DNA of 64,000 bases from the NCBI GenBank assembly GCA_029945445.1, contig JAQSCO010000014.1, positions 161,755-225,754 on the forward strand. Direction: 5' to 3'. Positions within the stretch are counted from its first letter, which is position 1. The number at the start of each line of letters is the position of its first letter. Source of the stretch: Lacunisphaera sp. GTDB lineage: Bacteria; Verrucomicrobiota; Verrucomicrobiia; Opitutales; Opitutaceae. Positions 12,201 to 54,981 of this stretch are shown here, piece after piece. Position numbers and translations under genes: made by a program. The notes under the pieces were generated by a model. It did no database searches. It saw only the letters and a list, made by a program, of their open reading frames with translations, and was not told the origin of the DNA.

Positions 12201-12824
12201 CTACTCGAGCGTCCGCAGCACGGCGCGGATCGGCGAGCCGTCGCCGCCGCGGATCCGCAGCGGCAGGGCGATGAGTTCGTAGACTCCCGGCGCCACCGCG
12301 CGCAGGTCGAGGTTTTCCAGGATGACAATGCCCGCGGCGGCGCAGGCGTGGTGGATCGGCAGGTCCTTGCTCTCGCGGTGGTCGACCGAGGGGACATCAA
12401 AGCCGACGAGCTTAACGCCGCGGGCCGCGAGCCACGCGGGGAGATCGGGCGTCATCAGCGGCCAGCCGGGCGGGAAGACCGCCGGGTCGGGCCACGAATC
12501 GCTCTTGAAGAGCACGCGCGGCGTCGCGGCGAAATCGTGCGCGGCGAGCTGGGCCGGCGTGATGGTGGCGTGGCCGCGGAGGTCAACGACGCGCGCCGGA
12601 CCGACGTAGGTCCCGACCGGCACCTCGTCGATCTTCGCGCCGGCGTCATTGTAGTGGAAAGGGGCGTCGGCGTGCGTGCCGGTATGCACGCTCAGGGTGA
12701 GCCGCCCGACATTGACGGCCGCGCCTTGCGGGATGGTGACGACCAGCTTGAACTCGGCGGCGGTGTCACCCGGCCAGACGGGCATGCCGGTGTGGATGGG
12801 GCGGGAGATGTCGATGAACTTCAT
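12201..12824 (-). CDS. kynB: Kynurenine formamidase (cyclase family)
   Basis: Start ATG 12824 (MKFIDISRPI) overlaps the kynU stop. HTGTHADAPFH metal motif, GFDVPSVD, ILENLDL, PLRIRGGDGSPIRAV. Confidence 0.88.
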   Translation of the reverse strand: MKFIDISRPIHTGMPVWPGDTAAEFKLVVTIPQGAAVNVGRLTLSVHTGTHADAPFHYNDAGAKIDEVPVGTYVGPARVVDLRGHATITPAQLAAHDFAATPRVLFKSDSWPDPAVFPPGWPLMTPDLPAWLAARGVKLVGFDVPSVDHRESKDLPIHHACAAAGIVILENLDLRAVAPGVYELIALPLRIRGGDGSPIRAVLRTLE

Positions 12825-14083
12825 GTGACAATGGGGCGGGCAGCGGAAAATTTCTCGTGGGCCTTGGTGCGCATGATTTTTTGCAGGCGGGCGATGGCTT
12901 CCGCGCAGTCGGCGAAGCTGGTGTAGAGCGGCGCGGGCGCGAGCCGGATCATGTCGGGCGGGCGGAAATCGGGCACGACACCCGCGGCCTTGAGCGCCGC
13001 GCAGATGCGCCAGGCGTCGGGGTGGGCGAGGGTGATGTGCCCGCCGCGTTCGGCGTCCGCGCGTGGACTGACGAGAGCAAACCCGCAGCCGGCCAGCTCG
13101 CTTTCCACCTGCTCCATTAGGTAGGTTGTCTGGGCGAGCGACTTGGCGCGCAGCGCGGCAATGCCGCCCGCCTCCGTGATGATCTCGAGCGAACCCGCTA
13201 GCGGCGCGAGGCTCAGCAGGTGCGGCGTGCCGATGTGCAGCGCGGAGGCGCCGGCGGCGGGTTCGTGCAGTGCGGTGAGTGCGAAACGCCGGTCGGGCCG
13301 CACGCCCCACCAGCCCGCGAGACCAGGTGCGCGGTGGAAGTGGCGGCGGTTGAGATACAGGCCGCCGACGGCCCCGGGCCCGGCGTTGAGGTATTTGTAG
13401 GAACACCAGAACGCGAAATCCACGCCGTCCGCATCGAGCGCATGCGGCACCGCGCCGATGGAGTGCGAGCAGTCGAAGCCGATGAGGAGGCCGCGGGCGT
13501 GCGCCGCGCGGGTGAGCGCGGCGGCATCGAGCAGCTGCCCGCTGGTGAACTGCACGAGCGAGAGCACCAGCAACTGCACGTCGGGCGCGAGGGCGGCAAG
13601 GATGTCCGCGGGGCGCAGCGTGCGGCCGTCGTGGCTGCGGACGAGGCGCAGGTGCCGCGCCGGGTCGAGTCCGCGCTGCCGCAGGTGGCTCTGCAACGCA
13701 TGCAGGTCGGAGGGAAAGTTCAGCTCGTCGGCGACGATGATATTGCGCGGATTTGCCGGATCAAAAAACGTGGCGAGCAACTGGTGCAGGTTCGTCGTGG
13801 TCGAACCCGTGACGGCGACCTCGTCGGACGCGGCGCCGATGAGCGGGGCGAGTTGCGCGGCGATCGTCTCGCTGAGGCTGATCCAGGGCGGGGCGGCGTC
13901 GGTCCAGCCGCTGATGCCGAGCGCGCGCCACTCGCCGATGACGCGCTGCAGGTGCCCCTCGGCGCGGCGGCTGAGCAGGCCGAGCGAGTTGCCGTCGAGG
14001 TAGACCTGCCCGGACGGCAGGTGGAACTCGGCGCGGAAACGTGCGAGCGGGTCGGCTTGATCGAGCGCTTGGGCGGAACGCAT
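12821..14083 (-). CDS. kynU: Kynureninase (PLP-dependent)
   Basis: Likely start ATG 14083. YLDGNSLGL, FPSD, FDCSHSIGAVP, WCSYKYLNAGPG (PLP lysine), GWWG, RGGH, DFRPP..IRLAPAPLY. Confidence 0.93.
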   Translation of the reverse strand: MRSAQALDQADPLARFRAEFHLPSGQVYLDGNSLGLLSRRAEGHLQRVIGEWRALGISGWTDAAPPWISLSETIAAQLAPLIGAASDEVAVTGSTTTNLHQLLATFFDPANPRNIIVADELNFPSDLHALQSHLRQRGLDPARHLRLVRSHDGRTLRPADILAALAPDVQLLVLSLVQFTSGQLLDAAALTRAAHARGLLIGFDCSHSIGAVPHALDADGVDFAFWCSYKYLNAGPGAVGGLYLNRRHFHRAPGLAGWWGVRPDRRFALTALHEPAAGASALHIGTPHLLSLAPLAGSLEIITEAGGIAALRAKSLAQTTYLMEQVESELAGCGFALVSPRADAERGGHITLAHPDAWRICAALKAAGVVPDFRPPDMIRLAPAPLYTSFADCAEAIARLQKIMRTKAHEKFSAARPIVT

Positions 14084-14171
14084 GGGCGTGAGCGTCGCGA
14101 GAAACGCCGGCGGCGCAAATGCGAAAGCAAATTGGCTGGCCGGGGCCGCGCCGGGCCGCACAATCACCGCC

Positions 14172-15308
14172 GTGAACATTCCCGCCTGGGACGACCGTGA
14201 GTGGACCCCGCTGCCGCGCCTCGCGGGCACGGTGCGCGCGGACATCTGCGTCGTCGGGCTCGGCGGCTCGGGGCTCGCGGCGCTGGAGGAGCTGATGGCG
14301 CTCGGCGTCAGCGCCGTCGGCGTCGACGCGGTGGCGGTCGGCGCGGGCGCGGCGGGTCGCAACGGCGGCTTCGTGCTCGCGGGGCTGGCGAAATTTTTCC
14401 ACGAGAACGTGGCGGATTTCGGGCGCGACACGGCGGCGGCGCTTTATCGGCTGACGGCGGAGGAGATCCAGCGCCAGGCCGGCGCGTTGCCCGGCATCAT
14501 CCGGCTGACCGGTTCGCTGCGCATCGCCGCCGACGAGGCCGAGCGCGCGGACTGCCGGCGGCATCTCGCGGCGTTGCGGGCGGCGGGCTTCGCCGCCGAA
14601 GCCTACGCCGGGCCGGAAGGCGAGGGAATCCTGCTGCCGGCCGACGGCGTCATGCAGCCGCTGCAGCGCGTGCGGACGCTCGCGCAAAGGCTGCGGACGG
14701 ACGGCGCGCGGCTCTATGAAAGCTCGCCCGTGAAAAAAATCGTGCCCGGCTCGGTCATCACCGAGACGGGCACGGTGCGGTGCGAAGCGGTCGTTGTCGC
14801 GGTGGACGGACGGTTGGAGCAAATCTTTCCGGAGCTCAGCCCCCGCGTGCGCACGGCGCGGCTGCAGATGCTCGCGACCGCGCCGGCGCCGGAGGTCAAT
14901 TTTCCGCGGCCGGTCTACTGGCGGCACGGCTACGAATACTGGCAGCAGCAGCCCGACCACACGGTGGCGCTCGGCGGTTTCCGCGACCACGCCCTGAAGG
15001 CCGAGTGGACGGCCAGCGCCGAGCCGACGGAATTAATCCAGGGCCGGCTCGACAAATTCCTGCGCGAGCACCTGCGGGTCAAGGCGCGCGTCACGCACCG
15101 CTGGGCCGCGTCAGTCGCCTACACGAAAGACGGCCTGCCGGTGATGGAGGAGGTGCGCGCCAAGGTGTGGGCCGCCGGCGCCTATTGCGGCACCGGCAAC
15201 ATCGTCGGCGCGCTGTGCGCGCGGGCCGCGGCGCGGCTGGCGTGCGGGCAGTCCTCGGACTGGGCGGAGCTGCTGGCCATCGCGCGGGCGCACGCGGCCA
15301 AGTCATAA
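14172..15308 (+). CDS. FAD-dependent oxidoreductase (DAO/PuuB-like family)
   Basis: Probable GTG start 14172. ADICVVGLGGSGL dinucleotide fold, GAGAAGRNGG, C-terminal AYCGTG. Confidence 0.82.
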   Translation: MNIPAWDDREWTPLPRLAGTVRADICVVGLGGSGLAALEELMALGVSAVGVDAVAVGAGAAGRNGGFVLAGLAKFFHENVADFGRDTAAALYRLTAEEIQRQAGALPGIIRLTGSLRIAADEAERADCRRHLAALRAAGFAAEAYAGPEGEGILLPADGVMQPLQRVRTLAQRLRTDGARLYESSPVKKIVPGSVITETGTVRCEAVVVAVDGRLEQIFPELSPRVRTARLQMLATAPAPEVNFPRPVYWRHGYEYWQQQPDHTVALGGFRDHALKAEWTASAEPTELIQGRLDKFLREHLRVKARVTHRWAASVAYTKDGLPVMEEVRAKVWAAGAYCGTGNIVGALCARAAARLACGQSSDWAELLAIARAHAAKS

Positions 15309-15320
15309 ACGGCTCCGGAA

Positions 15321-15326
15321 TTGACA
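15321..15326 (+). promoter_or_regulatory. Consensus sigma70 -35 hexamer upstream of the leader peptide
   Basis: TTGACA 33 bp before the leader ATG; no convincing -10 hexamer seen. Confidence 0.4.
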
Positions 15327-15358
15327 GCGGCCGGGCGGGGCGTCACCTGTTGCACCCG

Positions 15359-15448
15359 ATGAATCGCTTTGCCGCCACCTTTTACTTTAGCTTTGCGGTC
15401 TATTTTGCCCCGCAAACCCGAGGCGGCTTGGCCTCACGCAAATCCTGA
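15359..15448 (+). CDS. Phe/Tyr-rich attenuator leader peptide (29 aa)
   Basis: MNRFAATFYFSFAVYFAPQTRGGLASRKS; 5 Phe (all TTT) and 2 Tyr in codons 4-16, directly upstream of aroF-pheA. Confidence 0.85.
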   Translation: MNRFAATFYFSFAVYFAPQTRGGLASRKS

Positions 15449-15469
15449 CCTGAAACCAGAACCAATTTG

Positions 15470-15507
15470 CAAAGAAGCCGCCCAAGCCAGGGCGGCTTCT
15501 TTGTTTT
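15470..15507 (+). terminator. Intrinsic terminator of the attenuator
   Basis: 14-bp stem CAAAGAAGCCGCCC (15470-15483) / GGGCGGCTTCTTTG (15490-15503), 6-nt loop, then TTTT; ends 14 bp before the aroF ATG. Confidence 0.88.
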
Positions 15508-15521
15508 AACCCCCGCCCGCC

Positions 15522-16568
15522 ATGATCCTCCCCAAGAACCATCGTCTCACGGATGCCCAGGTCGCCGAGCTGACCGCGATCGTCACTGAGTTCGGCTGCC
15601 GCATCCAGCCGATCGTCGGCGACGTCCGCACGATCTACGCGATCGTGGGCGACGAGCGCCACGAGCTGATGATCAACCGGCTCGAGGGCCTGCCGTATGT
15701 CGACCGCGTCGATACCATCCAGTCGCCGCACAAGCTGATGGACATCAAGTCCGACCTCGCCAGCCACCGGGTGAAGGTCGGCGGCGTGACCCTCGGCAAC
15801 GGGCAGCTGTTGATCATGGCCGGCCACTGCACGATCGACCCGAAGAACCCGCACCTCTTCTACGAGACCGCGCAGGCCGTGAAGGAGGCCGGTGCCCACG
15901 CGCTCCGCGGCGGCGTGTGGAAGCCGCGCACCAATCCCTACGCGTTCCAGGGCGACCACAAGTCGCTCGATATCCTGATGGAGGGCGCGCGCCGCACCGG
16001 CCTGCCGGTGGACACCGAGGTGATGGACGAGGAGCAGTTGAAGCTCGCGCTCGCCGCCGGGGTGCACGTGCTGCAGATCGGCGCGCGCAACGCGCTGAAC
16101 TACTCCCTCCTCCGCCAGGTCGGCGCGGCCATCGCCGGCAAACCGGTCGCGGTGTTGCTCAAGCGCGGCATGCACACCGGCACGCTCAACGAGTTCATCT
16201 CCGCCGCGGAATACATCGTGAACTTCGGCAACCCCAACGTTATCCTCTGCCCGCGCGGCACGCAGCCCGGCCTCGACGGCTACCGCAACCAGCCCGACGA
16301 GGCCATCACCCCGCTGCTCAAGGAGCGCACCTGGGCCCCGGTCGTCGTCGACCCGTCCCATTCGGTCGGCAAGGCCGCCTATGTCCCGGCCTGCGCGCTC
16401 GCGGCCGTGGCCTATGGGGCGGACGGCCTCTGCATCGAGGCCCACGTCAGCCCGAGCCACGGGCTCGGCGACGACCCGAAGCAGGCCATCACGCCCACCG
16501 TGCTTGCGGGGTTGATTACGCAGGCCAAGGCCGTTCATGCTCTGCACCGTCCCGTCGCCGTGTCATGA
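15522..16568 (+). CDS. aroF: DAHP synthase, class I-beta with N-terminal ferredoxin-like regulatory domain
   Basis: About 70-aa N-terminal extension, then AGHC, KPRTNPYAFQG, QIGARN, LKRG, VDPSHS.G, IEAH. Confidence 0.92.
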   Translation: MILPKNHRLTDAQVAELTAIVTEFGCRIQPIVGDVRTIYAIVGDERHELMINRLEGLPYVDRVDTIQSPHKLMDIKSDLASHRVKVGGVTLGNGQLLIMAGHCTIDPKNPHLFYETAQAVKEAGAHALRGGVWKPRTNPYAFQGDHKSLDILMEGARRTGLPVDTEVMDEEQLKLALAAGVHVLQIGARNALNYSLLRQVGAAIAGKPVAVLLKRGMHTGTLNEFISAAEYIVNFGNPNVILCPRGTQPGLDGYRNQPDEAITPLLKERTWAPVVVDPSHSVGKAAYVPACALAAVAYGADGLCIEAHVSPSHGLGDDPKQAITPTVLAGLITQAKAVHALHRPVAVS

Positions 16569-17641
16569 AAAAACAACTCGCCAAAATCCGTGCCCAGATC
16601 GACGCCCTCGACCAGAAGGCCGTCAGGCTGCTCAACACGCGCCTGAAGTGCGCGCAGCGGATCGGCGAGCTCAAGCGCGGCGCGAAGACCCGCATCTACG
16701 TCGCCGAGCGCGAGGCCGACGTCCTCCGCCGGGTGCAGTCCGCGAACCAGGGTCCGCTCAAGCCGGCGGCGCTGACCGCCATCTACCGCGAGATCATGTC
16801 CGCCGCGCTCGCCTTGGAAAAGCCGCTCTGCATCGCCTACCTCGGGCCCGAGGCCACCAACACGCACCAGGCCGCGCTGCGGAAGTTCGGTTCGAGCGTG
16901 GACTACCGGCCGATGCCGACCATCGCCGACATCTTCACCGCCGTCGAGAAGGGCGAGGCCGACTACGGCGTCGTGCCCGTCGAGAATTCCACCGAGGGCT
17001 CCGTGCGCGACTCGCTCGACCTGTTCGTCGAGACACCGCTGAAGATTGTTGCCGAGATCCACCAGGAGATCGAGCACACGCTGCTGTCGCACGAGCCGCT
17101 GGCGAAGATCAAAAAGATCTACTCGAAGGACCAGGCGCTCGCGCAGTGCCGCCGCTGGCTGCAGCGCAACCTGCCGCACGCGCAGCTGGTCGACGTCGAC
17201 AGCACCGCGCTCGGCGTCCAGATTGCCGCGAAGACGAAGGGCGCTGCGGCCATCGCGCCGCGCCTCGCCGGCGAGCGCTACGGCGTGCCGGTCGCCGCGA
17301 CGCACATCCAGGACCTCAAGAACAACACCTCGCGCTTCGTGTTCCTCGGGCGCGAGGCCTCGGGCTCGGCCGGCAGCGGCCACGACAAGACGAGCCTGCT
17401 TGTCTCGCTCCACCACGAGCCCGGCGCGCTGCTGCACGCGCTGCAGCCGTTCAACCGCCGCAGGCTCAACCTCACGCGCATCGAGTCGCGCCCGAGCCGG
17501 CTGAAACCGTGGGACTACATTTTTTTCCTCGATGTCACCGGCCACTACGACGACCCGGCGATGCAGGCCGCGCTCAAGGAGCTGAGCCGGAAGTGCCCGC
17601 TCGTGAAGTGGCTCGGGAGCTACCCCGTCGCCAAGCGGTAG
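16565..17641 (+). CDS. pheA: Bifunctional chorismate mutase/prephenate dehydratase (P-protein)
   Basis: Start ATG 16565 overlaps the aroF stop. IRAQIDALD (CM), YLGPEATNTH, PVENSTEG, NNTSRF (PDT), LTRIESRP (ACT). Confidence 0.95.
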   Translation: MKKQLAKIRAQIDALDQKAVRLLNTRLKCAQRIGELKRGAKTRIYVAEREADVLRRVQSANQGPLKPAALTAIYREIMSAALALEKPLCIAYLGPEATNTHQAALRKFGSSVDYRPMPTIADIFTAVEKGEADYGVVPVENSTEGSVRDSLDLFVETPLKIVAEIHQEIEHTLLSHEPLAKIKKIYSKDQALAQCRRWLQRNLPHAQLVDVDSTALGVQIAAKTKGAAAIAPRLAGERYGVPVAATHIQDLKNNTSRFVFLGREASGSAGSGHDKTSLLVSLHHEPGALLHALQPFNRRRLNLTRIESRPSRLKPWDYIFFLDVTGHYDDPAMQAALKELSRKCPLVKWLGSYPVAKR

Positions 17642-43817: not shown

Positions 43818-43938
43818 GAGGGGATTCCGGGTTGCAGGGCTGGGCGGGATGCGAAGCACCGACGGGGTGACGCCGTCGGTGCAGGGAGGTTGCGGAAGCG
43901 GGCCGTCCGAAACGGACCGGCCCGCGGGGGATGGGCTG

Positions 43939-53069: not shown

Positions 53070-53098
53070 AAAAAGACCCGGCCTTGAAGGGCCGGGTC
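53070..53098 (-). terminator. Intrinsic terminator downstream of the Rne/Rng gene
   Basis: GACCCGGCC (53075-53083) / GGCCGGGTC (53090-53098) stem next to A5 (U5 on the minus strand). Confidence 0.75.
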
Positions 53099-53235: not shown

Positions 53236-54981
53236 TTAGCGGTATTCCTCGTTCGTGTTCGCGTTGATGATCTTGAAGTTTTCGACGTGGTAGTTCGGGT
53301 CGGCGCGGAAGGCCAACTTCACGCCGAAGGTTTTCTCCACGCGCACGAGCAGTTCCGAATCCTCGGAGCGCAGGCGCTCGAGGATCGAGGGGTGCACGTG
53401 GATGCGGAGCGAATACTCCTTGCCGTCCTTCCGCGCCTGGAGGCGGCGGGCGACGGAGGAGAGCTTGCGCTGGAGTTCGACCGACATCGTCGTCGCGGAT
53501 TTCACCATCGCGCGGCCGCGGCAATACGGGCAGCTGGTGTAGAGGTTGGCCGAGAGCGACTCCTGCTGGCGCTGGCGCGTCATCTGCATGATGCCGAGCG
53601 ACGAGATGGGCAGGATGTGCGTCTTGGCCTTGTCCTCCGACATGAGCTCGACCATGCGGTCGTAGACGGAGTTCCGGTGGCGGCGCTCCTTCATGTCGAT
53701 GAAGTCCATGATCACGAGGCCGCCGATGTTGCGCAGGCGGATCTGGCGCGAGATCTCGGTGGCGGCCTCCATGTTGACCTGGAAGATGGTGTTCTTCTCG
53801 TCGCCGGAGCGGCTCTTGTGGGAGCCGGTGTTGACGTCGATGGAGATGAGGGCCTCCGTCTCGTCGATCACGATCTCGCCGCCGGAGGGCAGCGGGACGC
53901 GGCGCTGGAAGGTCTGCTCGATCTGGCGCTCGATGTTGTAGCGCTCGAAGACCGGGATGGAGTCCTTGTAGTAGACGATCTTGCCGCGGGAGCGGTTGGA
54001 GATCTGGCCGACGTAGTCCTGGGTGCGCTTGTAGTCGTCCTCGTTGTCGACGAGCACGCGGTCGATGTCCTCGGTGAGGAAGTCGCGCACGGTGCGCTCG
54101 ACAATGTCGGGCTCCTGGTAGAGGCAGGCGGGGGCGCGGTCGTGCTCCATCTTGCGCATGATCTCGGTCCACTTGGCGAGGAGGAGATGGAGATCGCGGA
54201 CGAAGTAACGCGGCTTCTTGCCCTCGCCGGCGGTGCGGACGATGACGCCCATGCCCTCGGGGATGGTGAGCTCGTTGATGAGGGTCTTGAGGCGCTTGCG
54301 CTCCTGCGGGTCCTCGATCTTGCGGGAGATGCCGCAGCCGTCGGAGAACGGCGTGAGGATGAGGTAGCGGCCGGGGAGGGAGAGGTTCGTCGTGGTGCGC
54401 GGGCCCTTGGTGCCGATGGGGCCCTTGGTGACCTGGATGACGATCTCGCTGCCGGGCGGGTAGAGGCCGGGGATGTCCTTGACGGTCGGCTGCGCGGTGC
54501 GCGGGCCGGCGTCCTTCTTCTTGTTGACGCGCACGACCTCGACGGAGGAGTCGGTGGCGGCCGGGAGCATGTCCCAGTAGTGGAGGAAGGCGTTCTTGTT
54601 ATAGCCGATGTCGACGAAGGCGGCCTTGAGGCCGGGGTCGAGGTTCTTGATGCGGCCCTTGTAGATGCCGCCGACCATGCGGCTGTCGGACTCGCGCTCG
54701 ATCTCGAAGCGGTCGAGGGTGCCGTCGACGAGGAGCGCGACGCGCTTCTCGAGCGGTTCCGAATTGATGACGAGTTCGCGGAAGGAGCCTTTCTCCTTGC
54801 GGAAGATGCTCAGGATTTTCTGGAGGATGGGCCGGTCGGCGGATCGTTCCTTGGATTCCTTGCGCAGTTGGTCGGCTGTGAGGGGCTCGGTGTGCTTCTG
54901 GGGCGGGGGCTGCTGAAGTTCCTCTTCATGGCGTGAGGCGGCGTCCGGGGGGACGCCAGCGTTGGAGGGTTGATCGTTCAT
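53236..54981 (-). CDS. rng: Rne/Rng family ribonuclease (RNase G-like length)
   Basis: S1 domain [35 protein letters not shown]; no long disordered C-terminal tail. Confidence 0.92.

Follow-up and report, generated by a model that had tools for sequence, protein, structure and literature searches.

A predicted ribosome-mediated attenuator with a phenylalanine- and tyrosine-rich leader peptide upstream of aroF-pheA in Opitutaceae

Most work on leader-peptide attenuation concerns Proteobacteria, and some concerns Actinobacteria. The attenuator of the aroR-aroF operon of Corynebacterium glutamicum was reportedly studied by Neshat et al. in 2014. The described systems include the trpL, hisL, leuL and thrL attenuators of Proteobacteria and a number of predicted attenuators of Actinobacteria (PMC1262725), and attenuation has also been modeled (PMC1183508). 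In C. glutamicum, a leader with a phenylalanine-tyrosine-phenylalanine (Phe-Tyr-Phe) sequence precedes an operon headed by a gene for 3-deoxy-D-arabino-heptulosonate 7-phosphate (DAHP) synthase, and stalling of the ribosome reportedly raises transcription under Phe limitation (summarized in PMC11802643). A comparable element, an open reading frame (ORF) rich in Phe and Tyr codons followed by an intrinsic terminator, is found upstream of aroF-pheA in a stretch of 64,000 nucleotides (nt) from Lacunisphaera sp. (Opitutaceae, Verrucomicrobiota; positions 161,755 to 225,754 of contig JAQSCO010000014.1, assembly GCA_029945445.1). This whole stretch is hereafter called the window, and all coordinates below are counted from its first letter.

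The first-pass annotation of this region had proposed attenuation by the logic of pheL and trpL, and the comparison with related loci supports this proposal. A scan of a genome collection with the aroF protein yields 80 Opitutaceae loci (72-92% protein identity), and a homologous leader ORF and terminator are present in 46 of these; together with the source sequence, they make up the set of 47 leaders to which the counts below refer. The 46 related loci retain not only the ORF and its aromatic codons but also the terminator and the two alternative pairings. The region thus combines an aromatic leader ORF, a terminator located before the first gene with no promoter between the two, an antiterminator pairing (2:3) that excludes the terminator, and a further pairing (1:2) together with the corresponding placement of the regulatory codons. 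It is highly probable that a classical ribosome-mediated transcription attenuator, predicted from these features, governs the bicistronic aroF-pheA operon. No attenuator or leader peptide from Verrucomicrobia or Opitutaceae was found in Rfam or in literature searches of incomplete coverage, in agreement with the earlier remark that no characterized example was at hand in this lineage. The supported description is that of a well-conserved classical leader-peptide attenuator that represents a new sequence family, the logic itself being already known from the Corynebacterium Phe/Tyr leader before a DAHP synthase gene.

Leader peptide, RNA segments and proposed mechanism

The leader ORF (15359..15448, MNRFAATFYFSFAVYFAPQTRGGLASRKS) begins with ATG at 15359, comprises 29 codons and ends with TGA at 15446-15448; this feature, like all others of the operon described below, is on the plus strand. 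Its translation confirms the 29-residue peptide with F4, F8, Y9, F10, F12, Y15 and F16 that the first-pass annotation had read from these positions and contains no tryptophan (Trp) codon, as had likewise been stated. The regulatory run extends over 15368..15406 and includes five UUU codons, one UAC and one UAU; among codons 4-16, 7 of the 13 specify Phe (five) or Tyr (two). The leader ORF ranks first for aromatic richness among 792 small ORFs (15-45 amino acids, both strands of the window).

The RNA segments are numbered such that region 1 is GCCGCC, region 2 is the switch segment, and regions 3 and 4 are the 5' and 3' arms of the terminator. Region 1 (15371..15376, alanine codons Ala5-Ala6) pairs with 15422-15427 in the minimum-energy fold. 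Region 2 (15422..15429; GGCGGCTT, in RNA GGCGGCUU; glycine codons Gly22-Gly23) can be the partner of either region 1 or region 3. Region 3 (15470..15483) contains AAGCCGCC at 15475-15482, the antiterminator partner of region 2, and region 4 with the U-tract occupies 15490..15507, with the 3' arm at 15490-15503 and the T-run extending to 15507. Two short hairpins accompany these segments: P1 (UUUGCGG/CCGCAAA, 15392..15416), which folds within the leader ORF, inside the 1:2 helix, and is possibly a pause or stabilizing hairpin, and P3 (CGCAAA/UUUGCG with an inner CUG/CAG, 15438..15470), which spans the stop codon and would be enclosed by the 2:3 helix in the antiterminated state.

All three pairings proposed in the first-pass annotation, namely the 14-base-pair terminator with its U-tract at 15470-15507, the complementarity of region 2 to the terminator 5' arm, and the complementarity of GCCGCC to region 2, are present at the coordinates given there. 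The terminator is a GC-rich stem of 14 base pairs (15470-15483 with 15490-15503, loop AAGCCA) with a predicted energy of -26.6 kcal/mol. The antiterminator duplex (15422-15429 with 15475-15482) has -16.4 kcal/mol and is mutually exclusive with the terminator, and the 1:2 duplex of region 2 with 15371-15376, flanks included, has -18.6 kcal/mol. The fold of the 171-nt leader yields z = -4.3 compared with dinucleotide shuffles, and a custom scan detects only three strong terminator-like hairpins in the 64-kilobase (kb) window, the leader terminator among them. A chance origin of the leader features is unlikely, given the top aromatic rank among the 792 ORFs, the rarity of such hairpins and this z-score.

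The leader differs from the surrounding genes in its Phe codons, as had been noted from the letters alone: all five are TTT, compared with 79 of the 533 Phe codons (14.8%) in 28 genes of the window, and aroF and pheA contain zero TTT with five TTC and one TTT with seven TTC, respectively. The probability of five TTT codons out of five at the genomic TTT frequency is about 7e-5, and in the pooled leaders UUU accounts for 76% of the Phe codons versus 22% in the adjacent aroF genes. The UUU bias is real, yet RNA pairing dictates the preference at least partly, because the F12 codon, UUU, has the AAA end of CCGCAAA as its partner in P1 (UUU-GCGG/CCGC-AAA) in this leader subtype, and the second subtype has UUC-UUC opposite a GAAG partner strand. 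An explanation of the bias solely by slow decoding of a rare UUU codon was considered and rejected, given that UUU or UUC is used according to the partner strand of P1.

The first gene of the operon (15522..16568) encodes an aroF-like DAHP synthase of type I-beta with an N-terminal ferredoxin-like FXD regulatory domain (Pfam DAHP_synth_1, 1.7e-43, and DAHP_snth_FXD, 1.8e-08). The second gene, pheA (16565..17641), encodes a chorismate mutase/prephenate dehydratase/ACT protein (Pfam CM_2, PDT and ACT), and its ATG overlaps the aroF stop codon (ATGA). The end of the U-tract is separated from the aroF ATG by 14 nt in the source sequence, and the corresponding distance is 11-15 nt in 26 of the 47 leaders. 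Because a gap of just 14 nt leaves no room for a promoter, aroF-pheA is predicted to be transcribed only by read-through of the terminator.

The putative promoter of the leader transcript is marked by TTGACA, a -35-like box at 15321..15326 that came to light only through the comparison of loci and not in a consensus scan. TTGAC(A) is present in 47 of the 47 leaders, 36-41 nt 5' of the leader start codon and exactly 38 nt from it in 30 of them. Given ordinary sigma-70 spacing, the transcript would begin only a few nt from the leader ATG, so that the leader ORF may be leaderless or nearly so, which fits with the lack of a recognizable Shine-Dalgarno sequence upstream of it. Sequences recognizable as Shine-Dalgarno are likewise missing before aroF (15508-15521) and pheA (16545-16564); the same lack at all three starts suggests that initiation independent of Shine-Dalgarno sequences is common in the source organism.

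In the proposed mechanism, transcription would begin at the promoter with TTGACA at 15321, a few nt before the leader ATG, and a ribosome would translate the 29-codon leader as RNA polymerase proceeds. When charged Phe-tRNA, and probably Tyr-tRNA as well, is abundant, the ribosome would clear the aromatic run rapidly; region 2 would then be held by region 1 or lie partly under the terminating ribosome, the terminator (15470-15503 and the U-tract) would form, and transcription would halt 14 nt before aroF. When charged Phe- or Tyr-tRNA is scarce, the ribosome is expected to stall at codons 4-16, covering or separating region 1 and melting P1. Region 2 would then be free about 5 nt beyond the leading edge of the ribosome and would capture AAGCCGCC of the 5' arm before the 3' arm is made, allowing read-through into aroF-pheA. 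That the leader is translated, where its transcription starts, how read-through responds to a shortage of Phe or Tyr and how much Tyr weighs in this response are all inferred.

Conservation, distribution and genomic context

The alignment of the 47 leaders carries the signature of a translated frame. The start codon is aligned in all 47 sequences (ATG in 39, GTG in 8), internal stop codons, of which the other two frames contain 45 and 26, are absent from the ORF frame, aromatic codons are most numerous in this frame in 46 of the 47 leaders, and the insertions and deletions that separate the leader subtypes are multiples of three. Conservation of the Phe and Tyr codons upstream of aroF orthologs, one of the checks suggested by the first-pass annotation, is apparent among the 25 leaders of 29 residues: Phe is retained at positions 8, 10, 12 and 16 in 22-25 of these, and Tyr at positions 9 and 15 in 20-21. 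Since UAU and UAC alternate freely while Tyr is retained, selection appears to act on codon identity in the leader; UUU and UUC also alternate while Phe is retained.

The switch segments are conserved in a different manner. The GGCGGC core of region 2 is identical in 42 of the 47 leaders, and among the 29-residue leaders each of its two glycine codons is GGC in 24 of 25, synonymous third positions included, whereas the glycine codons at positions 11, 14 and 21 drift among GGT, GGC, GGA and GGG. The terminator core is invariant in the 47 sequences, and the six core antiterminator pairs are retained in 44-47 of them. When the named helices are scored on the alignment, the structure of the termination state (1:2, P1 and the terminator) is paired in 90% of the cells, compared with 46-58% for partners shifted by 1-3 columns, and the GCCGCC/GGCGGC pairing of 1:2 is retained in 95%. 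In P1, one pair changes from G-C to U-A in 13 sequences, which corresponds to about one event between the two leader subtypes and is the only real compensatory change. The outer helix of P3 is paired in 82% of the cells, mostly through sequence conservation, with weak covariation.

The spacing between the codons and the switch is fixed as well: in 40 of 46 leaders, irrespective of the subtype, the distance from the first base of the last aromatic codon to the start of region 2 is 18 nt. The dimensions of the ribosome footprint place the leading edge about 12-13 nt beyond the first base of the A-site codon; therefore, region 2 would be just clear of a ribosome stalled at the last aromatic codon. 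Folding of the alternative states was the other computational check that had been suggested. Across the set, the RNA downstream of a ribosome on the last aromatic codon folds into 2:3 in 45 of the 47 sequences, and when no ribosome is placed on the complete leader, 1:2 is predicted in 38 and the terminator (3:4) in 42; the truncated folds of the source sequence, discussed below, are mixed.

The distribution of the leader differs between the two gene arrangements. Among the loci with aroF-pheA, all of the 42 possess the leader except for two in which the contig ends before the leader position, and one of these two (L029) still shows the 3' arm of the terminator; six of the loci with aroF only possess it as well. 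Cultured relatives with the element include Oleiharenicola lentus (L028) and, for the leader type with Trp, Cephaloticoccus primus (L075). The gene upstream of the leader encodes a DAO-family oxidoreductase in 31 leader-bearing loci, and none is found within the fetched flank in the other 15, on which grounds the element appears to travel with aroF. Further attenuators, with runs of aromatic, Trp, histidine, leucine, branched-chain or threonine codons and a terminator, were sought in the window and the 80 loci, and no credible case was found.

Several loci show variations of the element or of its surroundings. A repeat of 120-350 nt with inverted ends CACGGAT/ATCCGTG (e.g., ATCCGTGAAATCCGTGG) is located between the U-tract and aroF in about a dozen loci (L007, L013-L018, L022, L029, L038-L040 and L045; e.g., positions 2811-3000 of L014), with the attenuator intact; it resembles a small mobile element of the MITE (miniature inverted-repeat transposable element) type that targets this site or is tolerated there, and it is absent from the window. 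In L038 (2612-2674), a TGA codon directly before GGCGGC shortens the leader to 20 residues, and in L040 (2711-2791) the aromatic run is mostly lost (MIRVDRYAKKFFRFDVLKNMGGCPNA); the terminator is intact in both, and these leaders may be decaying or retuned attenuators. Seven aroF loci without the element (L043, L044, L046, L054-L056 and L066) share another conserved upstream motif, TTTCTCCTGTTGCC, about 40-70 nt before aroF; a promoter or a different regulatory site may have taken the place of the attenuator there.

The window has a G+C content of 67.5%, and its aroF is closest to those of Lacunisphaera, Opitutus and Oleiharenicola (Opitutaceae, Verrucomicrobiota). In the source sequence, the gene upstream of the leader encodes a DAO-family FAD oxidoreductase and ends at 15308, and a glycogen synthase gene follows pheA after a gap of 115 nt. 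Farther upstream, on the minus strand (12201-14431), a kynureninase gene (Aminotran_5 and KYNU_C) is in tandem with a gene of the cyclase family (kynurenine formamidase-like); these genes of Trp degradation are separated from the aromatic operon by the DAO-family gene, and the listed ORFs overlap. The three hairpins of the terminator scan are located at 15471-15502 (plus strand), 43918-43938 (plus strand, weak) and 53075-53098 (minus strand, 3' of a gene ending at 53236), and canonical intrinsic terminators are rare in the window (1-64000). No tRNA genes were found in the 64-kb window.

Amino acids sensed and alternative explanations

A number of observations weigh against the reading of this locus as a ribosome-mediated attenuator. 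The direct support consists of sequence elements, their conservation and spacing, complementarity and operon content. No Shine-Dalgarno sequence is recognized upstream of the leader ATG, and a consensus promoter scan recognizes neither an E. coli-type -10 box nor a sigma-70-type promoter; for these reasons, leader translation and the transcription start are deduced indirectly. The 1:2, 2:3 and terminator-core pairings are invariant, with no compensatory changes, and the counts given above cannot separate pairing from conserved sequence; such invariance is expected for a segment that pairs with two partners, though it is weaker evidence than covariation. RNAalifold, run on the 47-sequence alignment, recovers only the terminator, the upstream helices being lost because the two leader subtypes align with insertions and deletions; in view of this outcome, the named helices were scored directly. 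Equilibrium folds of truncated transcripts of the source sequence, with a 30-nt ribosome mask, are mixed: without a ribosome, the terminator 5' arm has competing pairings, and a mask over Y15 or F16 allows regions 1 and 2 to pair formally across the ribosome. In place of these folds, the structure was predicted for the RNA from the ribosome to the terminator loop alone. Because the equilibrium folds of the source sequence are not clean, a clean switch in this model depends on the usual kinetic and steric assumptions. Moreover, 32 loci with aroF only lack the leader altogether. The remaining two points concern Tyr: serine (Ser) occupies both conserved Tyr positions in four relatives (L005, L008, L010 and L013, with the sequence FSFTF), and in C. 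glutamicum the availability of Tyr is reportedly without effect on aroR-aroF (PMC11802643).

Phe is predicted to be the dominant signal. Dual sensing of Phe and Tyr, the latter more weakly, is plausible rather than established, because of the loss of Tyr in the four relatives and its lack of effect in the C. glutamicum system. The same mechanism could operate with only the charging of Phe-tRNA being relevant and the Tyr codons being tolerated neighbors. The near-invariance of the Phe positions (22-25 of 25) and the replacements of Tyr by Ser would be consistent with such an arrangement, as would the assignment of the second gene, pheA, to the Phe-specific branch and the reported increase of aroR-aroF transcription in C. 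glutamicum under limitation of Phe, with no influence of Tyr (PMC11802643). However, Tyr is retained at two positions in 20-21 of the 25 leaders with free alternation of UAU and UAC, Tyr synthesis also draws on the DAHP synthase and chorismate mutase of the operon, and the Trp codons of the aroF-only leaders suggest that codon content tracks the demand of the pathway. On balance, sensing of Phe alone is rather unlikely.

The Trp codons in question are present in five of the six aroF-only leaders (L053, L068, L070, L075 and L077; e.g., MNRFAAYYFSFGFWAYFAPKHLGGCHDN), within leader ORFs located at about 2790-2930 of their loci, and in none of the 41 aroF-pheA leaders; L079 is the aroF-only leader without one. 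In the aroF tree, the aroF-only leaders form one clade of five plus L053 alone, so that the comparison amounts to about two lineages versus one. The pattern fits with a leader codon content that follows the controlled pathway. A broader proposal, possible rather than probable, is that of an attenuator lineage that is specific to the Opitutaceae and family-wide, with a leaderless or nearly leaderless leader the codons of which have been retuned, to Phe/Tyr with aroF-pheA and to Phe/Tyr/Trp with aroF alone. If this is true, the Opitutaceae lineage offers a natural series relating leader codon composition to the amino-acid specificity of attenuation.

Two further explanations dispense with the leader peptide as the sensor. 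The hairpin could be a constitutive or leaky terminator that insulates aroF-pheA from the oxidoreductase gene, with the small ORF being a conserved but unrelated hydrophobic micro-protein or untranslated. The terminator indeed lies 3' of the DAO-family gene (stop codon at 15308), the small ORF has no Shine-Dalgarno sequence, and the pairings are invariant rather than covarying. Nevertheless, every one of the 47 leaders has a conserved TTGACA separating the ORF from the upstream gene, the 14-nt gap would leave aroF without a promoter of its own, and the element persists where the upstream gene differs; the fixed 18-nt spacing from the last aromatic codon to region 2 and the freezing of region 2 at synonymous sites add to this. 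An insulator is very unlikely on these grounds, and an assignment of the hairpin as the terminator of the upstream gene was rejected given that TTGACA, the gap, the spacing and the frozen region 2 are left unexplained. The other explanation is a switch acting in trans, such as a riboswitch, a T-box-like tRNA sensor or an RNA-binding protein, with the ORF being incidental. Terminator/antiterminator architecture is common to riboswitches and T-boxes, and translation of the leader is so far a prediction. However, a scan of the whole 64-kb window finds no Rfam family at or above its gathering score, a permissive scan of the region yields only a sub-threshold Phe_leader match on the terminator, and no T-box or riboswitch sensor domain is found among Rfam families at threshold, the sub-threshold matches being unrelated. 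The leader lacks any large domain of conserved structure, P1 and P3 being short hairpins, and the start and stop codons, the frame, the in-frame insertions and deletions and the aromatic identity with wobble variation are predictions of translation and not of ligand binding. A switch of this kind is very improbable.

Relation to known attenuators

A leader-peptide attenuator at this locus would represent a textbook mechanism and leaves the understanding of attenuation unchanged. Its interest derives mainly from the phylum, from the probable leaderless character of the leader ORF and from the natural variation of the regulatory codons. The element would extend leader-peptide attenuation to Verrucomicrobiota and would provide gene annotators with a recognizable regulatory feature upstream of aroF in Opitutaceae, and the fixed distance between the promoter and the start codon suggests leaderless translation of a regulatory ORF outside Actinobacteria. 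The natural variants, namely Phe/Tyr leaders, Phe/Tyr/Trp leaders, leaders with Ser in place of Tyr, the truncated leader of L038 and the degenerate one of L040, are useful for testing how codon content sets the specificity of attenuation.

The Rfam family Phe_leader (RF01859, gamma-proteobacterial pheL) matches the region with 24.0 bits and E = 0.23, below its curated gathering score of 55 bits; the alignment is confined to the generic terminator hairpin and skips 75 model positions. By the family's own test, the element is outside Phe_leader. It resembles the pheL-pheA system of Escherichia coli, which this family represents in Rfam, in having a short Phe-rich leader ORF, the 1:2, 2:3 and 3:4 pairings and a Rho-independent terminator before a chorismate mutase/prephenate dehydratase gene. 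However, pheL of E. coli is a Phe-only leader that controls pheA alone, whereas the present leader mixes Phe with Tyr and the first gene encodes DAHP synthase. With the classical trpL, hisL, leuL and thrL attenuators the element shares four segments, with segment 2 complementary to both 1 and 3 and freed by a stalled ribosome. It differs from these in the amino acids sensed, in the position of region 1, which is 5' of most of the regulatory codons, and in the additional P1 hairpin inside 1:2. A further contrast with the E. coli examples is suggested by the conserved -35 box, whose position 38 nt ahead of the start codon points to a nearly leaderless leader ORF.

The closest precedent in function and gene content is aroR-aroF of C. 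glutamicum, in which a mixed Phe/Tyr leader likewise precedes a DAHP synthase gene. The two systems belong to different phyla, C. glutamicum being a member of Actinomycetota, and the likeness drawn here is one of leader codons, gene content and reported regulation. The regulatory run of the Opitutaceae element, with five Phe and two Tyr codons over 13 codons, is longer than the Phe-Tyr-Phe of aroR, and its operon pairs aroF with pheA.

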